Below, piece by piece: positions 2,664 through 55,077 of a DNA stretch of 56,332 nucleotides (position 1 is its first letter; every line of letters starts with the position of its first letter). Location of the stretch: positions 1 to 56,332 of the forward strand of contig CAYTTP010000003.1 in NCBI GenBank assembly GCA_964440955.1, in the 5' to 3' direction. Position numbers and translations under genes: made by a program. The DNA comes from an uncultured Candidatus Saccharibacteria bacterium (GTDB lineage Bacteria; Patescibacteriota; Minisyncoccia; Phycocordibacterales; WO2-35-19). The notes beneath the pieces are model-generated. The model worked only from the letters and a program-made list of their open reading frames with translations, ran no database searches and had not been told where the DNA came from.

Positions 2664-5129
2664 ATGGCTAAAAAACCGAGCAAAACCGAAGTGGAGGAAG
2701 TGGCACATGTAAGTGTTGTCCCACGTTCGATCGTGACCGAAATGAAAGAGTCGTTTATCGACTACGCGATGTCGGTCATCACTGACCGTGCCTTACCCGA
2801 CGTGCGCGACGGGCTAAAGCCAGTACATCGTCGCATCCTCTATGCAATGAACACTATGGGTCTCACCGCAAACGCCAAAACTCGAAAGTCGGCGACTGTG
2901 GTGGGAGAAGTGCTTGGTAACTATCACCCACACGGCGATCAGGCCGCTTATGACGCGATGGTCAAAATGGCCCAAGATTTTGGCCATCGTTACCCGCTTA
3001 TCGTCGGTCAAGGAAACTTTGGCTCGGTCGACGGCGATAGTCCTGCGGCAATGCGTTATACCGAAGCTAAAATGAGCAAGGTCGCAGGCGAGCTTTTGCG
3101 CGACATCCAAAAGGAAACTGTCGATTGGGTACCAAACTACGACTCAACCAAAAAAGAGCCAAAAGTATTGCCGGCCGCTGTGCCAAATATTTTACTAAAC
3201 GGTACTTTGGGTATTGCCGTTGGTATGGCGACCAATATTCCTCCACACAACTTGCGAGAGGTTATCGACGCAACTTCATACCTTATTGACAACAAAGACG
3301 CGACCACTGAAGACTTACTCCAATTTGTCCAGGGGCCGGACTTCCCACTTGGTGGCATCATTTTCAATAGCAAAGACATTCATCATGCTTATGCGACTGG
3401 TCGCGGCGGCATCGTCGCTCGCGGTGTGGCAGAGATAGTCGAAGACAAAAATATTTCTCAAATTGTTATTACTTCCATTCCGTTTCGCGTCAACAAATCA
3501 GCTCTTATTGAAAAGATCGCTGAGCTCGTGCGTGACAAAAAAATCGACGGCATCAAAGGTTTGCGTGACGAGTCGACCAAGGACATCAGAGTGGTGATTG
3601 ATCTCAAAAATGGCAGCCATCCTCAAAAGGTCTTAAACTTTTTATACAAGCACACTCAACTCGAAGAAACTTTTCACGTCAACTTGGTCGCTTTGGTTGA
3701 CGGCGTACCCCAAACACTCTCGCTTAAAGGTATTCTTGAAGAGTTTGTGAAGCATCGCCAAGTGGTGATCCGTCGCAGGACCGAATTTGACTTGCGTGAA
3801 GCCGAAGCACGCGAGCATATACTGCTTGGTCTCAAAAAGGCACTCGATCATATCGATGAAATAGTGAAGCTCATCAAAAAAAGCAAGGATGTCGATACAG
3901 CGAGAGCAAACCTCATGAAGGAGTTTAAGTTTTCCGAAATTCAGGCAAACGCTATTCTTGAGATGCGTCTCCAAAAGCTTGCTAGCCTTGAGCGTCAAAA
4001 AATAGAGGACGAATTGAAGGCTATCCAAACACTTATCAAAGAGCTTCGCGATATTTTGGCCAATCCAAAAAAGATTTTGACCATCATCAAAAAAGAGCTT
4101 TCCGAAATAAGTGAAAAGTATGGCGATGATCGTCGCACCAAGGTAGTCAAAGGTGGAGTCAAAATATTGACCGTCGAAGATTTGGTGGCTGATGAAGAAA
4201 ACACACTTATCCTCACTGCTGGTGGCTATGTGAAGCGTACTCACCCCGACGAATACAAAAAACAAAAACGCGGTGGGGTCGGCGTAGTTGACCTTGATAC
4301 CAAAGAGGAAGATTTTGTCACCCATTTTCTCACCGCTTCAACTCATTCGGACATACTATTTTTCACTGACCGTGGTAAGGCATACCAACTCAAGATGCAC
4401 GAACTTCCAGAAGGCAAGCGAGCCACTCGTGGCAAATCGATAATGAACTTCCTATCACTCTCTGAAGGTGAGCGAGTGACTTCTATTCTCCAAGTTTCAA
4501 AAGACTCAAAAGCAAATAAAGATTTGTCGCTCATCATGGTGACAGCTGATGGCACTGGCAAAAAAGTCTCGGCGGCAAGCTTCGCGGATGTGCGGGCAAG
4601 TGGTATCATTGCAATCAAACTCGAAACTGGCGATAGATTGGTGTCTGTTTCCCAGGTTTCAAAGAGTGACTCCTGTGTTATCGTCACGGCGCAAGGCCAA
4701 TCGATCCGCTTCAAAGAGTCTGATGTTCGAGAAATGGGTCGTACAGCGATAGGGGTACGGGTCATCAAACTCGACAAGGGCGACCGCGTTGTCGGAGCCC
4801 ACTCACTTTCCAAAGAAAATGAAAAGTCGGCGACCCTCCTTACTATGGGAGCAAATGGTTATGGTAAGCAAACTCCGATTTCTGAATACAAGATCCAGGG
4901 CAGAGGTGGCTCCGGTATCAAAACAAGCAATGTCACGAGCAAAACTGGTGAGATCATTGCTTCCACTATCATCAAGGGTGACGAGGAGGAAGCAGTCGCA
5001 ATGTCCAAAAAGAGCCAAGTCATTCGACTCGCTTTAAACGAAATACCGACTCTCGGTCGTTCGACTCAGGGGGTGCGTATCATGCGTATGCGTGAGGGGG
5101 ACAGTATTGCGTCGTTTATTTGTCTTTAG
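2664..5129 (+). CDS. gyrA: DNA gyrase subunit A
   Basis: 821 aa. Carries the GyrA N-terminal signature ([27 protein letters not shown] active-site Tyr region) and C-terminal beta-pinwheel repeats. Confidence 0.97.
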
Positions 5130-5131
5130 GT

Positions 5132-5166
5132 ATCACCCCCCTCCCCTCTTATAATTAAGAGGGGAG
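5132..5166. repeat. TCACCCC-hairpin intergenic motif, copy 1
   Basis: ATCACCCCCCT followed by the perfect hairpin CCCCTCTTA-TAAT-TAAGAGGGG, directly after the gyrA stop. Confidence 0.55.
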
Positions 5167-12608: not shown

Positions 12609-12788
12609 GCTTCCTCAATTTTTTCTCATCTTTTATTTTTAATCCAATTACACAAGTTTTTACGATCGTGAAAACTTGTGTAGAGAGTATTTTTTTATTT
12701 TTATTGGAAATTTCCAGAATATCCCACGAGCTTGCTGTGGGGATGAATGGAAGTAAACAACCACCAGACTTAGGTCCGGTGGTTGTTT

Positions 12789-17849: not shown

Positions 17850-18003
17850 AGTGATTTGTGTTCATATAATACATCAAATTGATTATTTTTAAAGTGTTTT
17901 ATGTATAAATAAAAATCAAGATACAAACTTTCACGGCCGTGAAAAGTTGTATCAAAAGCATATTTCTTTGATATGAGAAGTATGTTATAAATATTCTGAT
18001 CGC

Positions 18004-34882: not shown

Positions 34883-35725
34883 ATGCAACAATACTGCTTT
34901 TTTAATGGCAAAATCGTACCAATAGAGGAGGCGAAAGTCTCTGTTTTGGACATTGGGCTTTTGCGAGGTTATGGTATTTATGATGGTATCCCAAGCTTCA
35001 ATGGTAAACCATTTCGTTTTGCTGATCATTGGAGCAGGTTTGTCGCTGGGGCACATACGCTCAATTTGAACATCCCGATCACTGAAGAGAAGGCAGAAAA
35101 AGTAGTGATTGAGTTGCTTGAAAAAAACGGAATGACTGAGAGAGCTAACGTGCGTTTTATTTTGACTGGTGGCGACACGATAAGTGGTATTGAATATGAT
35201 TTTGAAAAGCCTACATTCTACATAATCACTGAAAGATGGGAGAAGCTTCCAGAGGAAGTGTATAGCGAAGGTGCCAAACTTATCACCTACCGTCACGTAC
35301 GAGAGTTACCAGAATCAAAAACTATCAATTATATTCGCGCTGTCAATTTGCAAAATTTTAAAAAAGAGGAGAAGGCTCTCGAGATCCTGTATACCTACGA
35401 TGGCGAGGTGCTTGAGTGCGCGACTAGCAATGTTTTTCTTGTAAAGAACAAAAAAATCATCACTCCGGCCGAAAATGTTTTGAAGGGTATCACTCGCAGG
35501 GTTGTGCTCGAAATTGCTTCCGATACTTACGAAGTCGAGGAAAGGATAGTACATGAAAGTGAGCTCAAAGAGGCTGATGAGGTATTTATTACTTCCTCAT
35601 TTAAAGATATAGTCCCGATAGTCAAAATAGACGATATGGTGGTCGCAAATGGAGAGGTGGGAAGTGTCACTAAAGACATAATGTTTCGGTATAGACGAGT
35701 CATTCAAAACGTTCCCCTCGCTTAG
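34883..35725 (+). CDS. class IV aminotransferase (D-amino-acid/branched-chain type)
   Basis: 280 aa. Fold-type IV motifs: LRGYGIYD, ECATSNVFLVK, GITR. Sits in a mur cluster, which is compatible with D-Glu supply. Confidence 0.8.
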   Translation: MQQYCFFNGKIVPIEEAKVSVLDIGLLRGYGIYDGIPSFNGKPFRFADHWSRFVAGAHTLNLNIPITEEKAEKVVIELLEKNGMTERANVRFILTGGDTISGIEYDFEKPTFYIITERWEKLPEEVYSEGAKLITYRHVRELPESKTINYIRAVNLQNFKKEEKALEILYTYDGEVLECATSNVFLVKNKKIITPAENVLKGITRRVVLEIASDTYEVEERIVHESELKEADEVFITSSFKDIVPIVKIDDMVVANGEVGSVTKDIMFRYRRVIQNVPLA

Positions 35726-35896
35726 CACACATAATTTTCTGCTGAAAATTTGTTCTGCTCGGTGCACCTGCGCAAGGCACGCTCGGGGAAGTTTCTGAAT
35801 GGCTCGTCCCTCATTGCAAATAATTAGCTTTGTGTTATTATTGGCTCTGTCCTAAATGGTATCTTAATTTTCAATCTTTAATTCTAAATTCAAAAA

Positions 35897-36052
35897 ATGT
35901 CCCAAGACCAACTTATAAAATTGATGCATAAGGCGACTGGCGAGATCTACTGGACCCGCAAAAACAAGCGAAAAGTAGAGCGCAAGATCGAGCTCAAAAA
36001 ATACAGCAAAAAGCTCCGCAAACGAGTGGTTTTTAAAGAAATCAAGAAGTAG
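35897..36052 (+). CDS. rpmG: 50S ribosomal protein L33
   Basis: A 51-aa ORF not in the track: MSQDQLIKLMHKATGEIYWTRKNKRKVERKIELKKYSKKLRKRVVFKEIKK. This is the L33 pattern (YxTxKNKR...LELKKY...). Confidence 0.85.
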   Translation: MSQDQLIKLMHKATGEIYWTRKNKRKVERKIELKKYSKKLRKRVVFKEIKK

Positions 36053-36064
36053 TCGCAACAAAAA

Positions 36065-36086
36065 CTGGCTCATCGAGCCAGTTTTT
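36065..36086 (+). terminator. intrinsic terminator after rpmG
   Basis: CTGGCTC-ATC-GAGCCAG followed by TTTTT. Confidence 0.8.
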
Positions 36087-36106
36087 GTTAGTATCAAGTT
36101 ACTATA

Positions 36107-36203
36107 GGGCCTATAGTTCACCATGTCATTCGCGAATGACGTGGTCAGTGGTAGAATAGCGGTCTCCACCCCGTCGCTCGCGAGCGACAGGGTCCAAAAC
36201 CAA
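36107..36203 (+). pseudogene. tRNA-Trp-like 5' fragment interrupted by two palindromic insertions
   Basis: GGGCCTATAGTTCA..TCAGTGGTAGAATAGCGGTCTCCA..CCAAAACC shares ATAGCGGTCTCCAAAACC with the real tRNA-Trp. Insertions are CCATGTCATTCGCGAATGACGTGG (36121-36144) and CCCCGTCGCTCGCGAGCGACAGGG (36169-36192). No 3' half is present. Confidence 0.55.
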
Positions 36204-36209
36204 TACCAG

Positions 36210-36470
36210 ATGTATTACGTCTATATTCTTAAAAATTTAGAGTCTGACTACTTATACATAGGCTACAGTTGTAATCTCAGAAGGAGAATAGAAGAACATA
36301 AAAGTGGTAAGGTTTATACCACCAAGCGATTAGGTAAAAATATCGAGCTTATTTACTACGAAGCTTATAAGAGCAAAGAGGATGCGCAGGATAGGGAAAA
36401 GAGTTTTAAAAAATCTGGTTCAGTGTATAATGGCCTTATTAAAAGAATAAAGAGAAGTAGGGGTGATTAG
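36210..36470 (+). CDS. GIY-YIG nuclease family protein (short stand-alone type)
   Basis: MYYVYILKNLESDYLYIGYSCNLRRRIEEHKSG...YYE... carries the GIY-YIG motifs. The last 10 nt overlap the tRNA-Trp 5' end. The track ORF from 36123 reads through the pseudo-tRNA and is probably not the real start. Confidence 0.8.
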   Translation: MYYVYILKNLESDYLYIGYSCNLRRRIEEHKSGKVYTTKRLGKNIELIYYEAYKSKEDAQDREKSFKKSGSVYNGLIKRIKRSRGD

Positions 36471-36534
36471 TTAAGTGGCATAATAGCGGTCTCCAAAACC
36501 GCGGTCGTGGGTTCGATTCCCTCATCACCCGCCA
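36461..36534 (+). tRNA. tRNA-Trp(CCA), CCA encoded
   Basis: Acceptor GGGTGAT/ATCACCC, anticodon arm GCGGT-CTCCAAA-ACCGC, T arm GTGGG-TTCGATT-CCCTC, then G73-CCA. Confidence 0.9.
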
Positions 36535-36588
36535 AGTCGGGTAGCGCCCGAGACGCGTTAATGAAATACTTTTTAGGTTTTGCATAGA
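36510..36588 (+). repeat. att-like repeat A (tRNA-Trp 3' end plus trailer)
   Basis: GGTTCGATTCC...CCCGCCAAGTCG-hairpin-AGACGCGTTAATGAAATAC-TTTTTAGGTTTTGCATAGA aligns with 37861-37939. Confidence 0.65.
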
Positions 36589-37256
36589 TGAAGGATACAA
36601 AATATTCGTATCAGAATTTAGTAGGATATATAAGTAGAATAATATTTATATTTGGCGTACCACTTATATTTGTCTATTTTTTTATTTATAAACCACTCAC
36701 TTTAAATAAATGTTTTTCATTTGTTAGTGAGGATGCTCTAAATAACAAGACTGTTGAAATTCAGGTGATCCGTTCTTTGGACCAGGTTGCACAAGAAATT
36801 AAATCATTGGATCCTATTTTACCATTAAATAATGACTGGTTTAAATTTAATGTAACTTTTAGTAATAATTTTAAAGTTGCAATAGTAACATCTAAACCAG
36901 ATTCATACACAGAGGCAACGACAACTTTTTTCTTAGAAACAAAAAACGGAAGCTCTACTATTCCATATGACCAGAAAATAATCATCAATGAAGTAGGGTC
37001 AGAAAATTTAAATAGTCTTATTACAAATCTTGGTTTTATTACAAACAATAAACCTATTTATGTACCTGGCGGCAGTATGATTTCCTTACAAACTAATCCA
37101 AATTTAGGTCAGTTCTGCTCTTTAGTGGAATTAAGTAGAAAATACAAGTTATTAATATACATTGAATCTCTTATAATATTTATTGGTCTGCTTTTAATAA
37201 CCAAAGAAATAATTAGCTTTATAAAACAAGGATTTTCAAATTATTTTAAATTATGA
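36588..37256 (+). CDS. hypothetical membrane protein (very AT-rich)
   Basis: 222 aa with N- and C-terminal hydrophobic helices. No motif recognised. Confidence 0.45.
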   Translation: MKDTKYSYQNLVGYISRIIFIFGVPLIFVYFFIYKPLTLNKCFSFVSEDALNNKTVEIQVIRSLDQVAQEIKSLDPILPLNNDWFKFNVTFSNNFKVAIVTSKPDSYTEATTTFFLETKNGSSTIPYDQKIIINEVGSENLNSLITNLGFITNNKPIYVPGGSMISLQTNPNLGQFCSLVELSRKYKLLIYIESLIIFIGLLLITKEIISFIKQGFSNYFKL

Positions 37257-54729: not shown

Positions 54730-55061
54730 TCCGGGATAGCTCAGCGGTAGAGCGAGCGACTGTGTCGTGACGCAGCTTCCAAAAGAAATTTTGGTTGAAA
54801 AACGAGGTGAATTCGGGGGAACCCCAAGTGGGCAATCCCGAGCCAATCCTAAATTAAAGAAAGATATTGTTGTGTAAAAACTTTAATTAAGGCAGGTGTA
54901 GAGACTATTCCGAAAGGAAGTACTTACTCCGTATTTCGGAGTCGGGAAGCGCCTCGCTCCTAATAGCCAATTTGGTTAAAGGAGATGATATAGTCCATAC
55001 TTCTAGTAATAGAAGAGAATATGTAATCGCTTGGTCGTAGGTTCGATCCCTACTCCCGGAG
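54730..55061 (+). tRNA. tRNA-Asn(GUU) interrupted by a group I intron in the anticodon loop; no CCA encoded
   Basis: Exons 54730-54763 and 55024-55061 join to give acceptor TCCGGGA/TCCCGGA (U1:A72, G73 as in tRNA-Asn), anticodon arm AGCGA-CTGTTAA-TCGCT, T arm GTAGG-TTCGATC-CCTAC. Confidence 0.85.
54764..55023 (+). ncRNA. group I intron (IC3-like), 260 nt, no ORF
   Basis: The 5' exon ends in U and the intron ends in G. GCAG (54772-54775) can pair with the exon CUGU as P1. The core strings GAATTCGGGGGAACCCCAAG, GAGCCAA and GGTGTAGAGACTA (54895-54907) match the conserved core of bacterial tRNA group I introns. Confidence 0.85.
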
Positions 55062-55077
55062 CAAAGGAATTTAATAT

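Follow-up and report, generated by a model that had tools for sequence, protein, structure and literature searches.

The 56,332-nt contig CAYTTP010000003.1 of an uncultured Candidatus Saccharibacteria bacterium (assembly GCA_964440955.1), referred to as the window, carries a tRNA-Trp locus at which the native gene has been disrupted and a foreign copy, linked to a gene for a small GIY-YIG nuclease, has taken over. The locus represents a recurrent module, which is composed of a tRNA-Trp relic with a 24-bp palindrome centred on TCGCGA, followed by an 86-aa GIY-YIG gene and an intact tRNA-Trp gene. In our view, the window locus is probably a copy of a selfish, homing-type cassette whose target is the tRNA-Trp gene of bacteria of the candidate phyla radiation (CPR). 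Other collected loci and contigs are given L-numbers (L001, L002, and so on).

Disruption and replacement of the native tRNA-Trp gene

The relic of the native tRNA-Trp occupies positions 36107–36201 of the forward strand, lacks a 3′ half, and is split by two palindromes. It reads GGGCCTA-TA-GTTC..GAAT-A-GCGGT-CTCCA..AAAACC and spans the first 40 nt of the native gene (ending ..CTCCAAAACC), which include the acceptor strand GGGCCTA, the D arm, the anticodon stem GCGGT, the loop CTCCA..AAA, and the first CC of the returning stem. Palindrome 1 (CCATGTCATTCGCGAATGACGTGG, 36121–36144) lies in the D loop of the relic between direct TCA repeats (36118–36120 and 36145–36147), and palindrome 2 (CCCCGTCGCTCGCGAGCGACAGGG, 36169–36192) lies in its anticodon loop between direct TCCA repeats (36165–36168 and 36193–36196); both are unstranded, 24 nt long, and have one mismatch each. 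The only exact matches to GTCNNTCGCGANNGAC in the window are these two palindromes, with ~0.007 expected by chance. Searching the 56-kb window for the 3′ half of the relic (acceptor strand TAGGCCC with the T arm) returned no match. A preliminary description of this DNA had recognized the tRNA-like 5′ half, both near-perfect palindromes with their positions in the D and anticodon loops, the TCA repeat, and the missing 3′ half, all of which we found as described. It was also right that a repeat flanks the anticodon-loop insert, but gave this repeat as CCA, one base shorter than the actual TCCA.

The left junction of the nuclease gene (36193–36209, forward strand) consists of the stub TCCAAAACC and an 8-nt leader before the ATG, in which there is no obvious ribosome-binding site for the GIY-YIG open reading frame (ORF). 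The nuclease gene itself (36210–36470, forward strand; Pfam PF01541) encodes a single-domain protein of 86 aa. Its last 10 nt, including the stop codon TAG (36461–36470), are nucleotides 1–10 of the intact tRNA-Trp (CCA) (36461–36534, forward strand; ARAGORN; Rfam tRNA, 61 bits), an overlap that had been pointed out before and that is also present in L002 and L088. This gene is the sole intact tRNA-Trp found in the window. Rfam at E ≤ 10 matched the intact tRNA alone across the locus and gave no match upstream of rpmG, the gene for ribosomal protein L33. An identical locus is present in an independent assembly (L001), which rules out an assembly artefact.

The aminotransferase adjoining the locus groups the host with Zambryskibacteria-like Parcubacteria. 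We compared the site with five nearest-relative loci among L174–L179 (aminotransferase 73–82% identical) and with a more distant syntenic locus (L169). Each of them has one uninterrupted tRNA-Trp beside rpmG, which is the conserved upstream neighbour of tRNA-Trp in the clade and is also found in L174–L179, and neither a GIY-YIG gene (tblastn, E ≤ 10) nor a TCGCGA palindrome was detected at the tRNA-Trp of L174–L179 and L169. The module is present or absent among relatives at one conserved site. When the relic is restored by deleting both palindromes and one copy of each flanking repeat, the resulting sequence (GGGCCTATAGTTCAGTGGTAGAATAGCGGTCTCCAAAACC) is identical to the tRNA-Trp of L174/L175 at 39/40 positions and to that of L099 at 40/40 (first 40 nt), versus 33/42 to the intact tRNA of the window itself. 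The restored relic thus matches the tRNA-Trp of the relatives, which identifies the fragment as what remains of the native gene of this lineage.

The intact tRNA of the window has a self-consistent acceptor stem (GGGTGAT/ATCACCC), where the native strand is GGGCCTA, and its nearest kin, in L002 and L088, are tRNAs that accompany the most similar nuclease genes. Judged by its sequence, it is a foreign replacement (‘cargo’) that comes from another lineage than the relic. The spacer after its CCA end is homologous to the spacer of L169, and the right junction is therefore at the extreme 3′ end of the tRNA. The view of the preliminary description that this is the scar of a nuclease-associated mobile insertion at a tRNA gene is supported by the native relic and by the empty site in the relatives, which carry an uninterrupted tRNA-Trp and not ordinary spacer in place of the fragment.

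One of these relatives has a tRNA fragment of its own. At 3598–3625 (minus strand) of L174, ~190 nt from the intact gene, there is a degenerate extra tRNA-Trp 3′ fragment (GCGGGCCAACAAGGATTCGGTCA), possibly left behind by a previous replacement or by a cassette that has since been lost.

Recurrence of the module and its palindromes

The closest GIY-YIG homologues (71–78% identity) have the same anatomy. In a Zambryskibacteria genome (L002), the upstream tRNA-Trp 5′ copy is identical to the downstream gene and is interrupted after CTCCA by CCCCGTCGCTCGCGAGCGACGGGG, followed by the nuclease gene and the intact tRNA; in L003–L007, the upstream tRNA copy is almost complete. Scanning metagenomes and one genome per species added 160 loci, and the module is spread across many lineages of CPR bacteria (Patescibacteria). 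The tRNA-Trp lies 0–35 nt downstream on the same strand in 22/26 homologues of at least 60% identity. The palindromes are not unique to the window, since a palindrome of the same family accompanies the GIY-YIG gene at a distance of ≤160 nt in all 34 of the 34 non-redundant GIY-YIG/tRNA-Trp loci; in 30 loci it precedes the ORF, and in the other four it is found only after the tRNA. In the wider family (51 loci, with Trp and seven further tRNA types), 28/51 loci repeat ≥11 nt of the downstream tRNA in forward orientation within their upstream 250 nt, compared with 0/51 in the reverse-complement control.

Distant family members adjoin other tRNA genes and are likewise preceded by a copy of the 5′ end of the respective tRNA. 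A sister subfamily (L108, L160, L130, L145, and L043; 46–52% identical) precedes tRNA-Ala, tRNA-Arg, tRNA-Ile, or tRNA-Val and has a transposon-like anatomy, in which tRNA nucleotides 1–11/13 are followed by a left repeat (CCCTCACCYAGRAA..), the ORF, a right repeat (..TTYCTRGGTGAG(GG)), and the intact tRNA. These terminal inverted repeats are 14–19 nt long, perfectly complementary within each locus, and covary between loci, and the terminal GGG serves also as tRNA nucleotides 1–3. At a tRNA-Cys gene (L064), we found a 21-nt 5′ copy, a short palindrome (ACCCCGCAGCGGCGGGGT), and a 3′ relic downstream; at a tRNA-Glu gene (L104), a 12-nt copy and two CCA...TGG hairpins; and at tRNA-Ser genes (L115 and L077), hairpins (GCCATGCACC..GGTGCATGGC) directly 3′ of the CCA end.

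The flanks of the module are mosaic. In at least eight loci, the relic is far closer to the functional tRNA-Trp of another genome than to its own neighbour (for example, the L052 relic equals the L014 gene at 35/35 positions), and in seven loci it is exactly equal to the neighbouring tRNA. L090 and L094 have the palindrome, stub, nuclease gene, and tRNA in common and differ in the 5′ halves of their relics; the window locus and L095 have the relic and both palindromes in common, at the same positions, and differ in their intact tRNAs. In L091, an upstream 5′ relic (GGGCGAT) and a downstream 3′ relic (..ATCGCCCGCA; ATCGCCC) are the halves of one former tRNA and enclose the nuclease gene together with a different intact tRNA. 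Relics of 3′ type, with the order GGTCTCCA-palindrome-TCCAAAACC-T arm-CCA, occur in L008, L011, L012, L018, L036, L052, L065, and L100. The extent of the relic varies by locus and includes 5′ halves only, nearly full-length copies, copies with internal deletions, and 3′ halves after the tRNA. This mosaic pattern fits an exchange via recombination in the conserved tRNA segments that flank the nuclease gene. The nuclease gene is not recombinant itself: that of the window is nearer to L002/L088 over its entire length, so the mosaic breakpoints fall outside the ORF.

The palindromes share the consensus CCCCG-NNNN-TCGCGA-NNNN-CGGGG. Among 30 distinct sequences, the arms are complementary at 95.8% of positions, and double-sided changes occur in 10/12 pairs (position 6/19 is T-A in 15 and C-G in 15), values that 0/500 shuffles reach in this set, which was itself gathered by palindrome search. 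Mismatches between the arms (9 C.A versus 5 T.G) have no G.U bias on the coding strand, and the centre is always palindromic; the symmetry is therefore one of DNA (a hairpin or cruciform, or the mode of making). An RNA hairpin selected on the coding strand was rejected on the same two grounds. Of the TCGCGA-centred GC-rich palindromes, 39 lie within 600 nt of a GIY-YIG gene (222 kb) and two lie farther off (355 kb), which corresponds to a ~30-fold higher density near these genes. A genome-wide repeat was likewise rejected, as the 56-kb window has no further palindromes of the family. The hexamer TCGCGA by itself is 2.4-fold over-represented in the window (28 occurrences versus 11.7 expected; 0/100 shuffles reach 28), and outside the locus it never sits in a palindrome of this family.

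The element corresponding to palindrome 2 is found at the same site in ~24 loci and is the hallmark of the family. At class I junctions (..CTCCA-palindrome-TCCAAAACC), TCCA is duplicated and the left junction falls directly after AAAACC in every locus; at class II junctions (..CTCCAA-palindrome-CGATTCC), the stretch from the anticodon loop to the T loop is deleted. L095 has the palindrome 1 element at an identical position, where A-T has become C-G in a compensatory manner, and the core of the element also lies 3′ of the tRNA-Trp CCA end in L075. Insertions at other D-loop positions carry the repeats TTTA, TAAA, TCA, or AAG, further palindromes directly before the 3′ CCA carry the repeat CCTG, and one palindrome is nested in another with the repeat GAGT. 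Nearly all insertion sites are unpaired in the tRNA cloverleaf, and those of L022 and L042 are at the boundary of D loop and D stem. The direct repeats at independent sites and the nesting support mobility of the palindromes, and thereby also the suggestion, made in the preliminary description, that they are miniature inserts.

Two palindromes have flanks of another kind. In L009 (2447–2486) and L042 (2141–2166), inverted and not direct repeats flank the palindrome (GGTTTCCA..TGGAAAAC, giving 20-nt arms), which seems to have grown longer as one flank was copied onto the other. Despite this flank symmetrization, we rejected a P-nucleotide-type hairpin-opening origin as a general explanation because the sequence of the palindrome is not derived from its flanks.

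Mobile palindromes could in principle be independent of the nuclease, i.e., a miniature mobile family that is moved by another enzyme or by repair and merely accumulates in dead tRNA fragments, next to a GIY-YIG gene that is an unrelated free-standing homing neighbour. The target duplications at several sites and the nested copy are in line with this, and yeast mitochondrial GC clusters, palindromic elements that show putative target duplications and lack an assigned enzyme, provide a precedent (PMC4478555). Such independence is nevertheless improbable, as the association holds in 34/34 loci with ~30-fold enrichment within 600 nt of GIY-YIG genes, no other copy exists in the 56-kb window or at the loci of the relatives that lack GIY-YIG, and the palindrome subtype tracks the GIY-YIG tree.

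The palindromes are also constrained: L002 and L088, whose ORFs differ by a dS of 0.30, do not differ at all over the 75 nt of relic, palindrome, and stub. When six loci with nucleases 63–100% identical are aligned, the anticodon-loop palindrome and TCCAAAAC form a near-continuous block of ~32 nt that is almost fully invariant, and in most loci the end of the palindrome is at a fixed distance of 11–17 nt from the ATG. A role of the palindromes as recognition sites is plausible.

The nuclease and a proposed route of spread

The 86-aa protein matches Pfam PF01541 over residues 2–70 (E = 2.4e-16; 60.2 bits versus a cut-off of 22.6), and, across 38 homologues, Y17, G19, R27, H31, and E64 are invariant and Y4/Y6 nearly so. 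All homologues open with MYYVY or MFYVY, and the true start is therefore the ATG at 36210 (MYYVYIL), which gives 86 aa. A 115-aa ORF from the ATG at 36123, inside palindrome 1, was dismissed as a gene-caller artefact, and its extension is not conserved. Annotation of such loci has two pitfalls, in that gene callers extend the ORF across the relic, to 115 or 147 aa in place of 86 aa, and relics can be mistaken for tRNA genes or introns. The best structure-profile hits are the UPF0213 proteins 1ZG2 (E = 2e-11) and 1YWL (1.9e-8), followed by SLX1 (~4e-3) and the I-TevI domain (0.014), and the score for the intron-endonuclease family TIGR01453 (18.2 bits) is under its cut-off of 56. The protein fits the stand-alone UPF0213/COG2827 type (single domain, ~85–105 aa) and has neither a further Pfam domain nor a separate DNA-binding domain in the Pfam search. 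It is thus UPF0213/SLX1-like and not of the I-TevI type, a distinction that, like the foreign origin of the intact tRNA and the wide spread of the module, was beyond the reach of the preliminary description. Selection on the gene is purifying (dN/dS 0.09–0.125 wherever dS is unsaturated), and from this and the conserved catalytic residues the nuclease looks active. Stand-alone UPF0213-type GIY-YIG proteins are abundant and, to our knowledge, without established function; the module offers them candidate substrates (the 24-bp hairpin or cruciform and the tRNA gene) and a testable role.

A homing-type cassette of this kind would spread after DNA transfer by recombination between its tRNA-derived flanks, namely the 5′ half of the relic, the cargo tRNA, and in some copies the 3′ half of a relic, and the tRNA-Trp gene of the recipient, which is probably stimulated by a nuclease break in or beside the anticodon loop. 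The palindrome and the TCCAAAACC stub would then be the conserved left-end cis element of the cassette. In the relic, the palindrome would destroy the uninterrupted anticodon-loop sequence and block the former target, and it is probably read as a hairpin or cruciform by a nuclease of structure-specific type. The palindrome may also insert alone nearby, with target duplications of 3–4 nt, in stretches that the folded tRNA leaves unpaired. Transcription of the nuclease gene probably starts at the former tRNA promoter, and expression of the gene is likely low because RNase P must cut within its last codons; RNase P processing of the tRNA would take away the stop codon of the ORF. Integration of a circle at a palindrome-bearing anticodon arm would account for the direct repeat in L008 but would not account for the first entry into a palindrome-free tRNA. 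The gene concerned is essential and has a single intact copy at each locus examined, and it would here be overwritten by a selfish element, not merely neighboured by one. In this way, core translation genes could be replaced horizontally in bacteria whose genomes are minimal.

Several observations weigh against a cassette that homes in this way. The 86 aa hold the catalytic domain alone, and long-site specificity like that of I-TevI or SegB is therefore unlikely. The anticodon arm of the cargo tRNA (GGTCTCCAAAACC) is the one that the relic used to have, so that a nuclease cutting GGTCTCCAAAACC would also cut its own cargo, which raises a problem of immunity. Known GIY-YIG enzymes leave 2-nt 3′ overhangs, and the duplications of 3–4 nt correspond neither to these nor to a product of homing; the chemistry of palindrome insertion is therefore without known precedent. 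Viral contigs point to no vector, with four weak matches (38–49% identity) among 2.9 million, and a phage origin was rejected for the same reason. The purifying selection and long-term conservation of the nuclease gene are compatible with a domesticated function as well and argue against frequent turnover. Finally, the covariation of the palindrome arms is affected by ascertainment, as mentioned above.

A bolder version, which we hold to be doubtful, is that the palindromes are the smallest known nuclease-mobilized DNA elements, i.e., hairpins that the GIY-YIG enzyme puts into the loops of tRNA genes. A single-domain, structure-specific enzyme would act with a stagger of 3–4 nt on a tRNA gene folded as single-stranded DNA, and the palindromes would serve as a weapon that knocks out the host tRNA-Trp and makes the cell dependent on the nuclease-linked copy. 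The sister subfamily, with its terminal inverted repeats and a tRNA duplication of 8–13 nt, would follow the same principle with other ends. If true, this would amount to gene-replacement ‘addiction’ combined with a GIY-YIG transposition chemistry that is undescribed in prokaryotes.

The domesticated function would take the form of a non-mobile operon, in which a GIY-YIG host factor is co-transcribed with tRNA-Trp and the relic and hairpins are a structured leader that regulates how the nuclease/tRNA transcript is made, processed, or translated. Strong purifying selection on the ORF (dN/dS ~0.1), a palindrome and stub that are conserved more than the ORF, the fixed 11–17 nt between palindrome end and ATG in most loci, and the presence of the module across many CPR lineages could all be read in this way. 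We nonetheless find it quite improbable, because the five nearest-relative loci and L169 manage with a plain tRNA-Trp and no module, the extent of the relic varies between loci, and the relic and the intact tRNA are of different ancestry. Moreover, palindromes occur also downstream of the tRNA, where a leader function is impossible, and the arm mismatches (9 C.A versus 5 T.G) lack the G.U bias on the coding strand.

Known systems and neighbouring features

We found no description of the module in the searchable literature. In function, the module comes closest to SegB of phage T4, a free-standing GIY-YIG homing endonuclease encoded in a tRNA cluster, which recognizes a conserved tRNA-gene motif and drives the inheritance of itself and of neighbouring tRNA genes over the markers of the recipient (PMC2330249). 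The module resembles SegB in that a GIY-YIG gene lies among tRNA genes, outside any intron, and in that the nuclease gene moves together with the adjacent tRNA, with loss of the resident copy. SegB has ~220 aa with a DNA-binding region and, as far as we know, leaves neither palindromes nor tRNA relics. Unlike this phage gene, the module is part of cellular CPR chromosomes, where it takes the place of an essential tRNA gene (one intact copy at each locus examined), and its protein of 86 aa is of the single-domain UPF0213/SLX1 type and always comes with a conserved palindrome. Among the hallmarks of intronless homing, the module has the presence/absence polymorphism and the mosaic flanks and lacks a separate DNA-binding domain. 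It would be homing-type selfish DNA with features for which we found no precedent, namely the single-domain nuclease, the mobile 24-bp palindrome, and the replacement of an essential tRNA.

I-TevI-type nucleases and the group I introns of tRNA genes have in common with the module the insertion point in the anticodon loop, the disruption of the target by the inserted DNA, and corresponding catalytic residues (Y6, Y17, R27, H31, and a Glu). However, Intron_gpI has no match in 35800–36800 (Rfam, E ≤ 10). There is no intron RNA at the locus, so the interrupted copy is dead and the second, complete gene restores function. Removal of the inserts at the RNA level, as mini-introns or through a split or trans-spliced tRNA, would mean that the fragment still feeds a functional tRNA-Trp. 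The inserts do sit in loops, like many archaeal non-canonical introns and CPR rRNA insertions (PMC11270868), their self-complementary sequence could bridge 5′ and 3′ halves in trans, and the window holds a genuine group I intron, in a tRNA-Asn gene. This is still very unlikely: the window has no matching 3′ half, a complete and uninterrupted tRNA-Trp lies 260 nt downstream, relics have degenerate anticodons, indels, and broken acceptor stems (L095, L003, and L098), and the locus has no group I or group II intron signal. There is also no bulge-helix-bulge geometry, because both flanks sit at the base of one continuous helix. A split tRNA in particular was rejected on account of the 3′ half (T arm and TAGGCCC) missing from the window.

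The tRNA-Asn(GUU) gene at 54731–55062 is split at anticodon positions 35/36 by an intron at 54754–55016 (Rfam Intron_gpI, 78 bits), the sole group I intron in the window. ARAGORN missed this gene. It fits the class of tRNA group I introns that has been described in Patescibacteria for tRNAs other than tRNA-Trp, in a study that mentions neither GIY-YIG nor Trp (PMC13011429).

By analogy, the palindromes most resemble the GC clusters of yeast mitochondria (e.g., GC42), which are short GC-rich hairpin palindromes with putative short target duplications in an AT-rich genome (PMC4478555). GC clusters tolerate structure-preserving changes, merge or nest, and spread between species by recombination in conserved flanks, and their mobility has been proposed to rest on endonucleases encoded nearby (PMC4478555). 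Unlike the palindromes of the module, they are organellar, dispersed over the genome, 30–50 bp long, and not tied to one nuclease gene, whereas the module palindromes have 24 bp and a strict TCGCGA centre and are found in the loop regions of tRNAs, no more than a few hundred bases away from genes of a single nuclease family. Related palindromic cases are the PstI palindromes beside Neurospora mitochondrial tRNA genes and the double-hairpin elements. The palindrome of the module would be a defined, testable candidate for how very short palindromic repeats move, a question that concerns mitochondrial GC clusters too.

Insertions in CPR rRNA genes that are neither group I nor group II also contain GIY-YIG ORFs and sit at the tops or bases of stem-loops (PMC11270868). 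Host group, structural RNA genes as targets, and GIY-YIG ORFs are shared with the module, but these insertions lie inside functional rRNA genes and have to be tolerated or removed, whereas the interrupted gene of the module is dead and a replacement is supplied. The module is unmentioned in PMC11270868 and PMC13011429. Integrative elements that target tRNA genes likewise duplicate part of the gene and keep the tRNA functional; the module differs in having no integrase, in duplicating the 5′ half, and in a total size of ~350 bp. That the locus is an integrase-mediated island or prophage junction with attL/attR duplication has next to no probability, because, although such elements commonly integrate at tRNA genes and the locus does contain a partial tRNA duplication, it is the 5′ half that is duplicated and not the 3′ end, the insert has only ~260 bp, the gene list and Pfam show neither an integrase nor a transposase in the ~3 kb to each side, and the nuclease gene is almost never on viral contigs. 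As in transposons and miniature inverted-repeat transposable elements, target duplications are present (TCCA, TTTA, TAAA, TCA, AAG, CCTG, and GAGT); no transposase of a known family (DDE, HUH, Ser/Tyr) is found within ~3 kb on either side, where there is only the GIY-YIG gene. A repetitive extragenic palindrome system with its associated transposase (REP/RAYT) was rejected, as the palindromes are confined to the GIY-YIG locus and none occurs elsewhere in the 56-kb window.

Upstream of the relic, rpmG (35897–36052, forward strand; Pfam PF00471, E = 5.7e-11) is followed by a terminator-like hairpin (36057–36089, forward strand) with a 15-nt perfect inverted repeat and then a T run. The L33 protein of the window is without the Cys-x-x-Cys zinc motifs (..LMHKATGEIYW.., ..KKYSKKLRKRVVF..), and that of the syntenic locus L169 has them (..LACTNCKRINYW.., ..KKYCPWCRKKTPH..). 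Between the aminotransferase gene and rpmG there is a conserved non-coding stretch (35722–35800; ..TTAGCNCNCATAATTTTCTGCTGAAAATTTG..CCTGCGCAAGGCACGCTC..) that has no Rfam match. The same stretch lies between rpmG and tRNA-Trp in L179 (3660–3745), and it could be a promoter, a leader, or a small RNA. In L169, a reverse-transcriptase fragment and a bAvd-like gene (3717–5149) beside the homologue of a 222-aa ORF of the window suggest a diversity-generating retroelement. Elsewhere in the window, two other long palindromes, at 12649–12682 (TACACAAGTTTTTACGATCGTGAAAACTTGTGTA) and 17920–17953 (GATACAAACTTTCACGGCCGTGAAAAGTTGTATC), are AT-rich and unrelated in sequence to the TCGCGA family; the latter sits between tRNA-Leu and tRNA-Lys.

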